DNA from: a virus
Taxonomy: Duplodnaviria > Heunggongvirae > Uroviricota > Caudoviricetes
Strand: one strand, 5' to 3'
Virus record (IMG/VR): IMGVR_UViG_2568526749_000005
DNA length: 4,653 nucleotides
Part shown: piece after piece, positions 1 to 4,653 of the stretch
Layout of the letters: each line of letters begins with the position of its first letter
How positions within the stretch are numbered: position 1 is the first letter of the stretch
Translations under genes and position numbers: made by a program
The notes under the pieces: model-generated
Seen by the model: the letters and a program-made list of their open reading frames with translations, nothing else
What the model was told of the DNA's origin: nothing
The model's database searches: none

Positions 1-62
1 GTTGTTCTGAGGTGAGCATATCACCTCTGTTCAGGTGGCCAAATTCAGTAAACCACTTCAAA
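1..62. repeat. Left copy of perfect 62-bp terminal inverted repeat (IR-L)
   Basis: Positions 1-62 are the exact reverse complement of 4591-4652, checked base by base; identity breaks at 63/4590. Contains an internal 7-bp stem palindrome GAGGTGA (9-15) / TCACCTC (21-27) with a 5-nt loop. Confidence 0.95.
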
Positions 63-87
63 CTTAAATGGTCAGCAGCTTTATGGA

Positions 88-336
88 TTGTTAGTTGGTG
101 GTGGCATCATAAACGCAGCAGTATTAGCGGGGATGCTAAAAACGGCTGCGTTTGTTGTTCCTGCTGCTGGTGTCGTAGGAGGAGCTGCGAAGGCATACGA
201 AAGCCCTGTTATACGAAATGCCTTGTTACGTCTGGCAAATACGCCAAAAGGTAGCACAGCATATGACAGAGCGATCAGTACGGTCACACAATCGCTCACC
301 AGAGTCGCACAGGCATCACAAAAAGAAGCTCAATAA
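88..336 (+). CDS. ORF remnant, unknown product; Gly/Ala-rich hydrophobic segment then hydrophilic tail. Probably the 3' end of a longer gene
   Basis: Frame 1 is open from 52 (just after TAA at 49-51 inside IR-L) to the stop at 334-336. No convincing start: TTG at 88 has no SD, and ATG at 133 has GGG directly abutting it. The other two overlapping ORFs (12-254 plus, 81-299 minus) look less protein-like. Confidence 0.3.
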   Translation: MLVGGGIINAAVLAGMLKTAAFVVPAAGVVGGAAKAYESPVIRNALLRLANTPKGSTAYDRAISTVTQSLTRVAQASQKEAQ

Positions 337-353
337 CTGGCAGCCACGGATGG

Positions 354-704
354 CTAATTTTTATTCTTTGATCTCGTCCACAGGTAAAGAAGAGCAATGG
401 CAAGACAGGAAACAGAGAATAGATAACCTACCTCATATGGTGCGCCAAAAAAATTAGCTATTGATACGGGCAAAAAAGCCGAAGCGATCAGAATTGAAAG
501 GCAAAAAATAAGCCCAGTAACATAGTTTATTAAACTCTTAAATGAGAAACGTTTTGCTTGATTTACGGTCTCAGCGAGTGATCGCTTAACGATGGATAAA
601 AGCAAATAGATGGCGACAGTAGCTAATGCCCCTTTCCACCAGTCTGGATATAGTTTTGCGACAATCAGCCCAAGGAAAACCATGATGACAGACTGAGCAT
701 TCAC
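354..704 (-). CDS. Small integral membrane protein (about 116 aa, 3-4 predicted TM helices); possible superinfection-exclusion-type protein
   Basis: ORF with GTG start at 702-704 preceded on the minus strand by AAGGAGG (complement of 711-717) at 6-nt spacing. The sequence is strongly hydrophobic. It is divergent from the 880-1904 operon. No family recognised. Confidence 0.5.
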   Translation of the reverse strand: MNAQSVIMVFLGLIVAKLYPDWWKGALATVAIYLLLSIVKRSLAETVNQAKRFSFKSLINYVTGLIFCLSILIASAFLPVSIANFFGAPYEVGYLFSVSCLAIALLYLWTRSKNKN

Positions 705-783
705 ACCAACCTCCTTAGTTTTGCGCAGGATACCAGATGATGTATAGGAGTGGGAGTAAAGTTAGTCGGTGATAGAACGGTGG

Positions 784-812
784 TTGCATAATGATATCAC
801 GTGACGTAAACT
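784..812 (+). promoter_or_regulatory. Putative sigma70 promoter for the 880-1904 operon
   Basis: -35 TTGCAT (784-789), 17-bp spacer, -10 TAAACT (807-812). The spacer holds a perfect 8-bp palindrome TCACGTGA (797-804). The GCATAG motif recurs downstream. Confidence 0.3.
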
Positions 813-879
813 TATTGCGCATAGCGTGTATTCAATGGATGCATAGCTATTGATAATCTCCGATAAGAAGGAGGTTTGT

Positions 880-1446
880 ATGAGCAATGAGACTAATGGG
901 ATTGATGAAATGTTTAGCTTGAACGCTGCCAAAGCTGGAGTCGCAATAGGTTTGCTATTACAGCAAGCTTCTGCGTTCAGTTGTGAGGTGGTTGTTACTG
1001 ATAACGTTCAGCACGCTTACCATCAATCCTCATTCAGCAGTGAACGGGCTAATGATGAGCTTCATGAGGCGGTGTCTTCGATTAAAGAATTGTCTCGAAT
1101 GCTGAAATACGCTTATCGTGTTCTTGCAAACGCTACCGATGAGAATGTAGACAATGTGTTGTCTATCATTGAACCAGAAAAGTCTCGATTGATAGAGCAT
1201 CAATTGAGAGGACTTGAAGGGGCAATGAAATCGGTATTCAAAGAAGCTTCTGCTGATTTTAAAGAGATCGCAAGAGATATCTATATCGTTGTTGCTGATG
1301 CCAGATCTGCCGTAACCAACCTGAATAGTCTTATTAAACAACGCTCATGTGTTCCGGTTGTTTTTGATAGTTCCGTAGATATGGCTGGTTTGCGTGCGCT
1401 TGCTGAGCACGGGACTCGTGTGTTTCACTCTGGTAACTTCCACTGA
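880..1446 (+). CDS. Hypothetical protein (188 aa), predicted mostly helical; no family recognised; upstream partner of the YafO-like gene
   Basis: ATG at 880 preceded by AGGAGG (869-874) at 5-nt spacing. The stop TGA (1444-1446) overlaps the SD of the downstream gene. Confidence 0.7.
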   Translation: MSNETNGIDEMFSLNAAKAGVAIGLLLQQASAFSCEVVVTDNVQHAYHQSSFSSERANDELHEAVSSIKELSRMLKYAYRVLANATDENVDNVLSIIEPEKSRLIEHQLRGLEGAMKSVFKEASADFKEIARDIYIVVADARSAVTNLNSLIKQRSCVPVVFDSSVDMAGLRALAEHGTRVFHSGNFH

Positions 1447-1454
1447 GGTAAAAC

Positions 1455-1904
1455 ATGCAAGTAACCGTGGAATATAATCAGGATAGTTTTGACTATTTTT
1501 TCTCCCCGGTTTTTGTTGAGTTTCCTGATTTAAAACAAACACTTGTAGATGATTTTATCATCTACAAGTCTACGGGAACGTTGCCCAGCTATTTTGGCAG
1601 AGACACCTCTTATCATCGACCTCCTGATATTGAAGATGCAGGCCTTATGCACCTTCATTTAGCAATTGGTGAAAATAAATTTGAGCCAATAAAAAATGGC
1701 ACAGATATCAGCACACCGCAAAAGTTGCAGTGGCATAAAACATCCAATACCGCTCTCGTTTATGCACAAAATCTTTTTGATGAGAACAGGTATTCATTGA
1801 TTGCTCTTTTTCATCCTGTAGCTCACATGTCTGCTAACAATCATAATAGAATGAGAGTGTTAGCAGGGTATGCGAGAGACTTTAGAAACACTATGTTTGA
1901 CTAA
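1455..1904 (+). CDS. YafO-family toxin-like protein (ribosome-dependent mRNA interferase family), 149 aa
   Basis: ATG at 1455 with GAGG (1445-1448) 6 nt upstream. Resembles my recollection of E. coli YafO in several blocks (DFIxYK..G.LP..FGRD.SY, H.HLA, LVYxQ..FDE, LIA, NN..M). Followed by an intrinsic terminator. Confidence 0.6.
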   Translation: MQVTVEYNQDSFDYFFSPVFVEFPDLKQTLVDDFIIYKSTGTLPSYFGRDTSYHRPPDIEDAGLMHLHLAIGENKFEPIKNGTDISTPQKLQWHKTSNTALVYAQNLFDENRYSLIALFHPVAHMSANNHNRMRVLAGYARDFRNTMFD

Positions 1905-1927
1905 ACCCACCGTCAGGTGGGTTTTTT
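1905..1927 (+). terminator. Rho-independent terminator after the YafO-like gene
   Basis: Stem ACCCACC (1905-1911) / GGTGGGT (1916-1922), loop GTCA, then a T-run through 1927. It lies between convergent genes (1455-1904 plus, 1953-2489 minus). Confidence 0.7.
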
Positions 1928-1952
1928 ATAAGGAGTAATCATGATTTACCCA

Positions 1953-2489
1953 TCAAACAACCCACCAGTTTGCCTGATTGGATGCCAGCCTTGCAGTTTT
2001 TATGGAATTAATTATGCCATGCTCAAGAGCCTTGTTAGCATCCAAAATGGTCGAGTCTGCTATCAGGGATGCCCACCTAATATGGGTTCCGATGTCGATA
2101 TTGAACGTCTCAACGAAGCGATCAAGATCGTTATCGAGGCATTTCCCGTACTCTCTCAATCTGGCATGGTCGGCGGCTGGGGAGGCAAAGCACCATAATA
2201 GAGGATGTAACAGGAATCTTGATAATGGGTTTGCGAAACGTTCTGAGCCAGCCAGGAAAACGATATTAGCTATGGATTCAACATTGCTTATGTTGTGAGT
2301 TCTAACGGTAACAGGGAGTGACTTAAGAAAGTTATACGCAGTAAAGCCAGCAGCAGTTTCCCCTCCCTGACTTGATATATGGATATTTAATTCAGTTGCG
2401 CCTTGAGATAATGCGGTGAGACAGTGGTTCTGAAGTTGCCCAACAGTGGCAGTGTTAACAGGGCATAAGAAATGAATTGTGTGCAGCAT
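1953..2489 (-). CDS. ClpP-fold (S14-like) serine protease homolog, 178 aa
   Basis: Aligns to the ClpP core as I recall it: IHISSQGGETAAGFTAYNFL vs [20 protein letters not shown], a Ser in NVESIAN aligned to catalytic Ser in GQAASMG, LLHP vs MIHQP, and C-terminal EHGIINSI vs EYGLVDSI. Its ATG (2487-2489) overlaps the mnt stop (2489-2491) as TAATG. Confidence 0.7.
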   Translation of the reverse strand: MLHTIHFLCPVNTATVGQLQNHCLTALSQGATELNIHISSQGGETAAGFTAYNFLKSLPVTVRTHNISNVESIANIVFLAGSERFANPLSRFLLHPLLWCFASPAADHARLREYGKCLDNDLDRFVETFNIDIGTHIRWASLIADSTILDANKALEHGIINSIKTARLASNQANWWVV

Positions 2490-2737
2490 TATTTTTCATC
2501 CTTAGCATACATGGTCTTTAGCGTCTCAAGTAGCGCCTCTTTGAATTTATCAGCTTCTTGCTGAGCAAATGACTCAACTGACTTTGGCGACCTATCTTCA
2601 TCAATCGCGGCTTGCAAAATCATGACGATCTCGGAGTTAACAGAGCGACCATTTTTTGATGCTCTGACAGCAAGAGCCTCGCGTAAAGATTCAGGGATTC
2701 TTACCGTAGTTGGAGAAATTGACACACCCTTTGCCAT
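2489..2737 (-). CDS. mnt: Mnt-like ribbon-helix-helix repressor (82 aa)
   Basis: ATG at 2735-2737 with AAGGTG SD on the minus strand. Similar to P22 Mnt (RIPESLREALAVRASKNGRSVNSEIVMILQAAI vs FRMPMEVREKLKFRAEANGRSMNSELLQIVQDAL). Divergent from arc. The ORF track extends to 2779, but that N-terminal extension has no homology. Confidence 0.75.
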   Translation of the reverse strand: MAKGVSISPTTVRIPESLREALAVRASKNGRSVNSEIVMILQAAIDEDRSPKSVESFAQQEADKFKEALLETLKTMYAKDEK

Positions 2738-2851
2738 ATAACACCTTTGGTATTCAATTTGATAGCAAAGTGTATGCAAAAAAATTTTGACTAGATATAC
2801 TCACTTTGCTATCTTTTGTATTCGAAAAGAGTTGTTTGCGTGGAGGGTAAC
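2738..2851. promoter_or_regulatory. Divergent mnt / arc-ant promoter-operator region
   Basis: Perfect 12-bp inverted-repeat arms GATAGCAAAGTG (2761-2772) and CACTTTGCTATC (2802-2813), 29 bp apart. Candidate Pant: -35 TTGACT (2787-2792), 17-bp spacer, -10 TATCTT (2810-2815), overlapped by the right arm. A TTGCAT -35 candidate for Pmnt sits on the minus strand (complement of 2774-2779). Confidence 0.55.
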
Positions 2852-3004
2852 ATGGAGAAAGAAATAAGTAAGATTTTGGTAAGGATGCCGCAGTCGTTAA
2901 AGGATGCTATCGGTAGCAGGGCAAAGGAAGAGTGCAGGTCGTTTAACTCAGAGGTTATCAAGCGCCTGATAGACAGCCTGAAGAGAGAGGGGGTAACGGT
3001 GTGA
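2852..3004 (+). CDS. arc: Arc-like ribbon-helix-helix repressor (50 aa)
   Basis: ATG at 2852 with GGAGGG SD (2842-2847). Similar to P22 Arc (VRMPQSLKDAIGSRAKEECRSFNSEVIKRLIDSLKREG vs LRWPREVLDLVRKVAEENGRSVNSEIYQRVMESFKKEG). Confidence 0.75.
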   Translation: MEKEISKILVRMPQSLKDAIGSRAKEECRSFNSEVIKRLIDSLKREGVTV

Positions 3005-3174
3005 TTCGCTTGGATGCAGTAGTCAAAGAGATTGCGATTACCATTTTAAGACCAAATTTTGTTCATGGCGAATCATTTGGCACGAACGAAAAATTGAGAA
3101 GAGAAAGAGTATTCAGTGGCAAGCGCACGTTTTCAGAAGTGATGCTTGATGCGGCAAAGAAATCAAAACAGTGA
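3001..3174 (+). CDS. Possible small ORF (57 codons) translationally coupled to arc; speculative
   Basis: GTG at 3001-3003 overlaps the arc stop (GTGTGA), with GAGGGGG (2987-2993) 7 nt upstream. Open frame to TGA at 3172-3174. No homology recognised. It overlaps the predicted sar-like terminator, so it may be non-coding. Confidence 0.15.
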
Positions 3175-3236
3175 AGCCCCAACTGCTGGAACAGTCAGGG
3201 CTTCGGTTGTCGGTAAATCCGTGGAGAAAAACCAAC
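3157..3236 (-). ncRNA. sar: Predicted sar-like antisense small RNA covering the ant ribosome-binding site
   Basis: Minus strand has an extended -10 TGcTATACT (complement of 3243-3251) placing the start near 3236. A minus-strand-specific hairpin follows (complement of 3173-3204, 13-bp stem with two G-U pairs, 6-nt loop), then the U-rich tail ACUGUUUUGAUUUCUUU (complement of 3156-3172). This matches the known P22 sar arrangement (about 69 nt, antisense to the ant start). Confidence 0.35.
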
Positions 3237-4139
3237 ATGAATAGTATAGCAATTTTAGAAGCAGTGAACACCTCTTACGTGCCATTCAACGGTCAGCAAA
3301 TTATCACCGCCATGGCTGCCGGAGTTGCATATGTTGCGATGAAGCCAATCGTTGAAAACCTCGGAATGAGCTGGTCAACGCAGCAAACAAAACTCATGAA
3401 GCAGATTAGCAAATTCAACTGTGTTCATATGAACATGGTTGCCGCTGATGGTAAGCTTCGTAAGCTACTCTGCCTTCCTTTGAAGAAGTTAAATGGATGG
3501 CTGTTCAGCATCAACCCTGAGAAAGTTCGTGCTGACATCCGCGATAAACTGATTCAGTACCAGGAAGAATGCTTTACTGTGCTGCATGACTACTGGACAA
3601 AGGGAGAGGCAGCAAATGCACGGAAGAAAACATCTGTTGATGACAGGACTCCGCTTCGTGATGCTGTAAATATGCTAGTCAGCAAAAAGCATCTAATGTA
3701 CCCAGAAGCTTATGCAATGATTCATCAGCGTTTCAATGTGGAAAGTATTGAAGAGCTTGATGCATCTCAGATACCACAAGCAGTAGAGTACATCCACAGG
3801 GTAGTGCTTGAAGGTGAGTTCATCGGCAAACAAGAGAAGAAAACCAACGAGCTTTCTGCAAAAGAAGCAAACAGCCTTGTATGGCTATGGGATTATGCCA
3901 ACCGCTCACAGGCATTATTCCGCGAACTGTATCCGGCGCTAAAACAAATTCAATCGAACTATTCCGGCAGATGTCATGACTGCGGTTATGAGTTCTCCCG
4001 TATTATCGATATGGCGAGAGACGTTTTAATCAATCACACACGAGATGTTGATATCAATGAGCCAGACGGACCAACGAATCTTTCCGCATGGATGAGACTT
4101 AAGAATAAAGAATTACCTCCTTCAGTACATAATTACTGA
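3237..4139 (+). CDS. ant: Ant-like antirepressor (300 aa)
   Basis: ATG at 3237 with GGAGA SD. The N-terminus [26 protein letters not shown] matches my recollection of P22 Ant. Position after arc is as in P22 immI. The ORF-track start at 3171 is a GTG upstream extension. Confidence 0.85.
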
Positions 4140-4157
4140 CAGATAACCAACGCAACG

Positions 4158-4181
4158 ACCCAGCTTCGGCTGGGTTTTTTT
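4158..4181 (+). terminator. Rho-independent terminator after ant
   Basis: Stem ACCCAGC (4158-4164) / GCTGGGT (4169-4175), loop TTCG, then a T-run to 4181. Confidence 0.7.
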
Positions 4182-4239
4182 ATGCCCAAAATTCACCGTG
4201 GCCATGCTGCGGCGATTCTTTGCATCTGGAGCAAATTAA

Positions 4240-4608
4240 ATGACAGACATTACAGCCAATGTGATTGTATCGATGCCTTCGCAACTCTTCACTATGGCGC
4301 GTTCTTTTAAAGCCGTAGCCAATGGCAAAATTTATATCGGTAAAATTGACACTGACCCGGTAAATCCTGAAAACCGGATTCAGGTTTATGTAGAGAACGA
4401 AGACGGCTCTCACGTTCCTGTTTCGCAACCAATCATCATTAACGCTGCTGGTTACCCTGTATATAACGGACGGATTGCCAAGTTCGTAACTGTGCAAGGC
4501 CATTCTATGGCTGTGTACGATGCGTATGGCGTACAGCAGTTCTATTTCCAGAATGTGCTGAAGTATGATCCTGATCAACTACGGCAGCAATTTGAAGTGG
4601 TTTACTGA
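4240..4608 (+). CDS. P22-type tailspike N-terminal head-binding domain only (122 aa); truncated relative to a full tailspike
   Basis: [43 protein letters not shown]...[15 protein letters not shown]...NVLKYDPDQ closely matches the P22 gp9 N-terminus. GGAG SD at 4228-4231. Similarity ends at DPDQ; the last codons FEVVY and the TGA stop (4606-4608) lie inside IR-R. Confidence 0.85.
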
Positions 4609-4653
4609 ATTTGGCCACCTGAACAGAGGTGATATGCTCACCTCAGAACAACA
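4591..4653. repeat. Right copy of the terminal inverted repeat (IR-R)
   Basis: 4591-4652 is the reverse complement of 1-62. Position 4653 (A) would pair with a T one base before the window start, so the full repeat may be 63 bp or more with 5'-TG...CA-3' ends. Same internal palindrome at 4626-4632 / 4638-4644. Confidence 0.95.

Follow-up and report, generated by a model that had tools for sequence, protein, structure and literature searches.

The stretch of DNA analyzed here, 4,653 nucleotides long and called the window in the following, represents the "ant moron" that extends from gene 16 to gene 9 in a P22-like E. coli prophage of the CUS-3/APEC-1 type, and its positions 60-4597 match E. 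coli prophages such as those of S88, APEC O1 and ATCC 11775 at 99.98-100%. It corresponds to the APEC-1/UTI-1 type of ant moron, for which Villafane et al. 2008 (PMC2629481) drew six genes, and the non-immI genes of such ant morons were treated there as functionally unassigned. The left part is taken by the 3' end of a homologue of gene 16, which codes for a DNA-ejection protein of the P22-gp16 family (60-336, plus strand; PHROG 770/29117 and S88 annotation), and the C-terminal segment encoded there is hydrophobic and glycine-rich. Tail-to-tail with this gene, after a gap of 18 bp that is the same in annotated close homologues, lies on the minus strand the gene of a hydrophobic protein of 116 residues, termed M116 (354-704; GTG start codon 704-702, TAA stop codon 356-354), which is defined by the ORF list, homologues, dN/dS and hydropathy. 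A terminator scan places a terminator-like hairpin with T-run for the gene 16 transcript at 342-355 (plus strand), where it overlaps the M116 stop codon.

On its other side, M116 is separated by a divergent intergenic region of 175 bp (705-879, delimited by sequence and locus comparison) from a 188-aa ORF (880-1446, plus strand; ORF list, phrog_8416) and a YafO-family toxin homologue (1455-1904, plus strand; Pfam, 3.4e-22). A ClpP-like protease of 178 aa (1953-2489; Pfam CLP_protease) and an Mnt-like repressor (2489-2737; Pfam) follow on the minus strand. The genes of Arc (2852-3004) and Ant (3237-4139) are on the plus strand according to the RefSeq annotation of the matching prophage, the sar antisense RNA of the immI region is on the minus strand (3170-3236; Rfam RF00262, 83.9 bits), and the head-binding domain of the tailspike begins at 4240 (plus strand; family match and annotation). 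A 57-aa ORF (3001-3174), which is hypothetical in RefSeq, overlaps with the sar RNA by its 3' end, and the sar RNA adjoins the ant start at 3237 upstream. The ClpP-like protease is free-standing, being located beside the Mnt-like repressor inside the ant moron and distant from the head genes, and its best PHROG and NCBIfam matches are head-maturation proteases. Wholly antisense inside its gene there is an 85-aa ORF (1941-2198, plus strand) with a full-length match to phrog_7758 (E = 1.2e-61). RefSeq annotates the protease gene but not this ORF, and probably one frame of this pair is a shadow ORF carried on from one phage annotation to the next.

The window is bounded by a perfect inverted repeat (arms 1-62 and 4591-4652), and positions 1-60 and 4593-4653 represent the ends of a repeated IS3-family element, which is annotated with an ISEc52-family transposase in strain SF-088 and occurs in 4018 of 5426 E. 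coli genomes. These IS ends interrupt gene 16 on its 5' side and the tailspike gene past codon ~118, and the tailspike frame is thereby closed by ..QFEVVY and a stop. As IS copies are present at both ends, the window does not represent an intact phage but an IS-bounded prophage remnant or a contig broken at these copies. In SF-088, the left IS junction is identical to that of the window, and the right-hand IS is located elsewhere in opposite orientation. M116 is intact in this IS-bounded remnant, both in the window and in SF-088. An intact homologue is also found at the edge of a prophage remnant beside ykgL in O111 strains, such as E. coli O111:H8 strain 1056-1 (locus L033, 3510-3899), where a deletion that extends to the M116 stop codon has removed gene 16 and the other structural genes. 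This is a second, independent instance of M116 outlasting the decay of a prophage.

The M116 gene and its product

On the minus strand, the Shine-Dalgarno sequence AAGGAGG (716-710) precedes the GTG codon (704-702) by the five-base spacer TTGGT (709-705), and the same Shine-Dalgarno sequence is found in the start regions of P22-type sieA, epsilon34 gp14, SEN22_15 and SI8. RefSeq/PGAP begins the protein at an ATG at 683, which results in a shorter product of 109 aa. The start at 704 is favoured over this annotation because the Shine-Dalgarno spacing suits it, because residues 2-7 (NxQxxI) are conserved at 37-40% identity with several homologues having an ATG at this very position, and because the annotated starts of P22-type sieA (phage As3), epsilon34 gp14, SEN22_15 and the SI8 gene align with it. 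The dN/dS of M116 versus homologues is 0.14-0.44, and homologues at 37-40% identity retain a length of 115-120 aa as well as the N-terminus MNxQ. Judged by these sequence data, M116 is a real gene, since it is under purifying selection, keeps its length at 37% identity, and has a strong and conserved Shine-Dalgarno sequence.

The protein has a GRAVY of 0.88, with hydrophobic segments at residues ~2-19, 23-39, 57-88 and 90-110 by hydropathy. AlphaFold2 models contain helices at 3-18, 23-49, 55-85 and 90-115, though at low confidence (pLDDT 57 and 64 in two runs). Positive charges cluster in the loop 40-56 (K40, R41, K51, R52, K56) and in the tail (R111, K113, K115), and by the positive-inside rule this distribution points to a topology with both termini inside and with two short periplasmic turns. 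Within the family, the best-conserved part comprises TM1 and the turn KLYPDxW. The original prediction, which had been made from the letters and open reading frames of this DNA, thus described the gene accurately in its strongly hydrophobic 116-aa product, its canonical AAGGAGG and its 175-bp divergence from the 880-1904 operon, and hydropathy and the low-confidence models predict four hydrophobic helices.

A word-indexed search of 5.8 billion proteins resulted in 19 clusters, all at least 71% identical, from E. coli, Salmonella, Yersinia enterocolitica and Edwardsiella tarda. When 1.84 billion representatives were searched with a HMMER profile, just seven matches were obtained, all of them belonging to the M116 family, and four of these were new relatives at 37-40% identity. 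All family members found are from Enterobacterales. Among 5426 complete E. coli genomes, the gene occurs in 229, always on the chromosome, and it is annotated as hypothetical in every listed E. coli record. No match was obtained by tblastn against 50,697 phage records, and a scan of genome contigs with one genome per species found nothing. In the collections searched, M116 appears to be known from prophages and IMG/VR contigs only.

There was no match at or near threshold in Pfam, PHROGs, PADLOC or NCBIfam, with NCBIfam scores far below the cut-offs; the Pfam copy was scanned without the SieA model PF26849, and its negative result therefore says nothing about SieA membership. In Pfam, PADLOC and NCBIfam, M116 does not reach the gathering threshold of any RexB, Imm, holin, SMR, GtrA or colicin immunity family. 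Foldseek searches of the model against BFVD and PDB gave no match with E <= 0.001, and matches are meaningless at a pLDDT of 57-64. A literature search by the RefSeq protein accession retrieved no paper or expression data. The M116 family is new by sequence, and as a small prophage-encoded inner-membrane moron beside ejection-protein genes it is of a familiar kind.

A conserved linker and the genes behind it

The start region of M116 is part of a conserved slot linker of 43 bp (699-741, minus strand) that includes a -10 element, the leader, the Shine-Dalgarno sequence and the GTG. Its identity to the listed P22-like phages of Salmonella and E. coli amounts to 94.6-100% and that to the start region of P22 sieA to ~97%, and as a query it matched 69 phage records. 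The linker is common to P22-type sieA (phage As3), epsilon34 gene 14 (HkcB-like), SEN22_15, the SI8 gene and others, always with the GTG at the same base, so that the coding-strand reading of all these start regions is ..TGGTATCCTGCNCAAAACTAAGGAGGTTGGTGTG, and the coding sequences of the slot genes are unrelated from the second codon on. The linker occupies only the M116-proximal third of the 175-bp region (705-741, or up to 814 in the comparison with SEN22/SI8). It contains the candidate extended -10 element TGGTATCCT (727-735, minus strand; TG at 735-734, TATCCT at 732-727), which reads as a putative extended -10 promoter, and transcription of M116 would then be expected to start near 720. 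There is no good -35 element upstream of it and none that is conserved among linker copies, and a sigma-70 consensus scan in which both hexamers are required does not call this element.

In IMG/VR, the exact 22-nt linker occurs in at least 120 contigs, with TGGTATCCTG just upstream in 113 of 120 copies, and in 100 of 109 linker loci a long convergent frame of the gene 16 type ends at most 120 nt away. The ORFs that start at the linker GTG belong to at least 12 unrelated families, among them M116 with 6 loci and SieA type A with 7. In 11 of 12 linker families there is a signal peptide or a transmembrane segment, the exception being a 140-aa family without membrane or secretion signal. Ten other families behind the linker are uncharacterized (IMG/VR loci L035-L154): these are the HkcB-like family, three more families that are anchored by their N-terminus and have 103-149 aa, proteins of 129, 99 and 68 aa with signal peptides, proteins of 62 and 75 aa with two transmembrane segments, and the 140-aa protein as the single soluble one. 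A second linker variant, ..GCTAAAGGGAGGGTTGGTGTG, heads three genes, namely those of the 87-89% M116 variants, of a SieA type-B-like protein and of a secreted 131-aa protein.

As linker variants thus head unrelated genes, the gene 16-proximal slot is, by comparison of sequences, an exchange site for small envelope proteins. The right boundary of the M116 cassette lies at 711-741, in the Shine-Dalgarno and -10 region, where homologous loci diverge from the window, and the left boundary lies at ~345-355, at the stop codon and the terminator hairpin of gene 16. In E. coli genomes that contain gene 16 without M116, the match ends at ~337-355, and in those that contain M116 without gene 16 it begins at ~345. 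M116 has the properties of a moron, as it is replaced among syntenic relatives and brings its own expression signals, including the promoter deduced above. As far as we found, there is no description of a dozen unrelated envelope-protein cassettes being served by one conserved linker, although a report of 2008 had noted that the region is variable.

The neighborhood on the gene 16 side is constant. A gene 16 homologue is positioned tail-to-tail with M116 in all 25 homologous loci that were compared at the protein level, and its C-terminal 82 residues are 63-100% identical to those encoded in the window. Where the context is readable, this adjacency holds for E. coli, Yersinia and Edwardsiella, and even for the homologues at 37-40% identity. 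G532 of P22 gp16, which is one of the SieA-escape positions (PMC10883804), aligns with a glycine encoded at ~70-72 of the window. The gene 16 segment beside M116 covers the residue aligned with G532 and the hydrophobic glycine-rich region, which is suggestive only. The idea that M116 co-evolves with one type of gene 16 C-terminus was rejected: all M116 loci compared have this type, but the same end, at 87-98% nucleotide identity, is also found beside the SieA type-B-like gene or the gene of the secreted 131-aa protein, and the association of M116 with a gene 16 type is best explained by physical linkage. A mimicry of ejection proteins was likewise rejected: blastp of M116 against the gp7, gp20 and gp16 homologues of the prophage gave no match even at E = 100.

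Possible functions of M116

The slot is best known from SieA. In P22, sieA and 85 bp of the DNA upstream of it suffice in single copy for an at least 10^7-fold exclusion; SieA prevents P22-like phages from injecting their DNA, and mutations that escape it are in gp16 and gp20 (PMC10883804). How it stops the DNA-delivery conduit formed by gp7, gp20 and gp16 is unsolved, and it is a puzzle how very different SieA types can exclude phages with very different ejection proteins (PMC10883804). The original prediction had placed M116 in the SieA neighborhood of P22-like phages, and the match has turned out to be more precise than that, as M116 shares with sieA the slot right after gene 16 on the opposite strand of P22-like prophages, as well as the linker with its extended -10, Shine-Dalgarno and GTG. 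Both proteins are small, and M116 would resemble SieA also in crossing the inner membrane several times and exposing very little to the periplasm.

We tentatively propose, with somewhat less than even confidence, that M116 is a moron in the sieA slot that serves as a prophage-expressed inner-membrane functional analogue of SieA and excludes incoming phage DNA. Such an action is suggested by the slot, the expression signals and the predicted membrane location, and an exclusion function as such appears plausible at a comparably guarded level. Mechanistically, the weak extended -10 promoter TGGTATCCT would drive the transcription of M116 in the prophage, in the antisense direction to the late operon, and translation would use the strong Shine-Dalgarno sequence and the GTG, with these signals residing on the conserved linker that could serve any cassette in the slot. 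In the inner membrane, the product would form four helices and have both ends and the basic loop 40-56 in the cytoplasm, exposing only two short turns, YPDWW and PVSIANFFGAPYE, to the periplasm. It could then block incoming phage DNA by an intramembrane interference with the gp7/gp20/gp16 conduit, or with a host factor that is needed by this conduit. The preference of the slot for envelope proteins, the purifying selection and the retention in decayed prophages count for a SieA-like function. Against it counts that the position alone links M116 to exclusion, and that there is neither homology to SieA of type A or of a type-B-like kind nor a SieA motif. No known function was found for any of the 11 slot families besides SieA, M116 included, and the slot position is thus no guarantee of exclusion. 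Moreover, there is no specific co-variation of M116 and gp16, since other slot genes are found beside the same gene 16 end.

An alternative is that M116 is a prophage-expressed inner-membrane protein with another job, which we regard as possible, at a confidence somewhat lower still. Small inner-membrane proteins that block phage DNA entry or membrane attack include T4 Imm, HK97 gp15, lambda RexB with four transmembrane segments, and the immunity proteins of pore-forming colicins with three to four such segments and about 110-180 aa; HK97 gp15 blocks a host transporter that is used in DNA entry. The likeness of M116 to these proteins is by analogy only and concerns their similar size and polytopic topology, as well as a prophage- or plasmid-expressed protection of the carrier that presumably involves intramembrane contacts. 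M116 could accordingly defend against unrelated phages, be it as a RexB-like channel, by abortive infection or by a transporter block as in the case of HK97 gp15, or it could contribute to the fitness or virulence of ExPEC/K1 and EHEC hosts. Such a job would agree with the fact that among 12 unrelated slot families a role is known for SieA only, with the missing similarity to SieA, with the lack of specificity for one gene 16 type, and with the retention of M116 in remnants that no longer make phage, which fits any host-beneficial function. However, PADLOC, Pfam and NCBIfam, including the RexB, Imm, holin, SMR and GtrA-type models, gave no match, and nothing positive favours any one of these functions. 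A conserved partner gene of M116 was not found among the 25 homologous loci; lambda RexB has RexA, whereas M116 has no RexA-like partner gene. Other occupants behind the same linker, such as HkcB of HK620 or gp14 of epsilon34 and further genes of the ant moron slot, are membrane-anchored and uncharacterized (PMC2629481). They differ from M116 in that HkcB-like proteins have one N-terminal transmembrane segment followed by a soluble coiled coil, whereas M116 is predicted to be almost wholly embedded in the membrane, and there is no sequence similarity between them.

Could M116 be a true SieA of a fourth type, diverged beyond the reach of sequence methods? The common slot and expression signals and the polytopic inner-membrane character would be compatible with this idea, and so would the four predicted transmembrane segments, as SieA has three transmembrane helices in type A and four in types B and C (PMC10883804). 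Nevertheless, this is improbable. The sole motif conserved across the three types is FxRYPxEAxxFNK, which is located at the cytoplasmic C-terminus (Leavitt et al. 2024, PMC10883804), and it is absent from M116 and from ten aligned family members, whereas the type-B-like protein used as control has RYPGEA. In a comparison that covered type A and type-B-like sequences, hhalign of the M116 profile gave 0.28% against the SieA type A profile and 0.18% against the type-B-like 204-aa protein, as opposed to 94.7% (E = 5.8e-8) in the positive control of type A against type-B-like. With 116 aa, M116 is also shorter than type A (162-164 aa) and than types B and C, which have about 30-50 aa more, and its four predicted helices are closely spaced, whereas in SieA a cytoplasmic loop of ~45 residues separates TM1 from TM2 and TM3. 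Because of the absent motif and the hhalign values of 0.28% and 0.18% versus the control, M116 is on present sequences not a demonstrable member of the SieA family, and the profile searches against SieA, Imm and holin families that had been suggested as a check have brought no support at threshold.

The original prediction had offered as a second possibility that M116 is a membrane partner of the adjacent toxin system, linked to the 188-aa/YafO-like operon by the shared 175-bp control region. The divergent arrangement in the window fits this idea, and so do the almost mirror-image Shine-Dalgarno regions of the two genes. These consist of AAGGAGGTTGGTGTG (701-716) and AAGGAGGTTTGTATG (868-883) and form inverted repeat I5, which may be due to chance or may be a trace of cassette joining. 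The M116 gene proved to be independent of the operon. Ten loci with the >=97% variant were checked at the protein level (L014-L020, L028 and the annotated S88 and SF-088), and the operon is beside M116 in eight of them and missing in L019 (98%) and L020 (97%). It is also missing in all 85-89% variants (L008-L011, L021-L027), in the Yersinia and Edwardsiella loci and in the readable flank of the 37-40% homologues, and the similarity between loci stops at 711-741, which is inside the intergenic region. The promoter-side neighbor is a tandem ClpP-like gene in L008-L011, differs again in Yersinia and Edwardsiella, and is of yet other content in L019, L020 and L021-L027. These varied neighbors rule out a dedicated partnership with the toxin operon, and with the operon missing from most homologous loci, any role of M116 as its membrane component is highly improbable. 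As for the operon itself, the 188-aa protein before the toxin belongs to no Pfam family and does not resemble YafN-type antitoxins, and a comparison with loci such as L008 suggests that the 188-aa/YafO-like unit was inserted, together with its terminator (1905-1927), between the ClpP-like gene and M116.

Equally improbable is that M116 is a holin or another lysis-related membrane protein, for which a sub-threshold Pfam match to Phage_holin_3_6 (E = 0.065, 13.7 bits versus a cut-off of 28.4) and a few holins among the non-significant fold matches could be cited, but this score is far below threshold, no fold match reaches E <= 0.001, and the gene resides in a prophage-expressed moron on the strand opposite the late operon and outside the lysis cassette, while the related assumption that the ORF is not a gene at all conflicts with the purifying selection, the length conservation at 37% identity and the strong conserved Shine-Dalgarno sequence.

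What does the SieA-like reading, in which M116 excludes incoming phage DNA at the inner membrane, imply? If M116 does not exclude phages, it is one more unknown moron. A wider version of the proposal would be that the slot is a swap site at which a dozen or more envelope proteins are expressed from a near-identical linker, and that M116 represents a new, SieA-unrelated family of inner-membrane blockers of DNA entry. We consider this combination rather unlikely, but if it is true, the slot as a whole would amount to a natural collection of proteins that act against the ejection-protein conduit by various routes. With an unrelated membrane protein much smaller than SieA in the same slot, there would be an independent handle on this conduit, by escape mutants and intramembrane contacts, and the shared linker in front of a dozen unrelated envelope cassettes is the most useful experimental lead. 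M116 is common, including in K1/ExPEC and O111 EHEC lineages, and if it is active, it could alter the susceptibility of those strains to P22-like phages.
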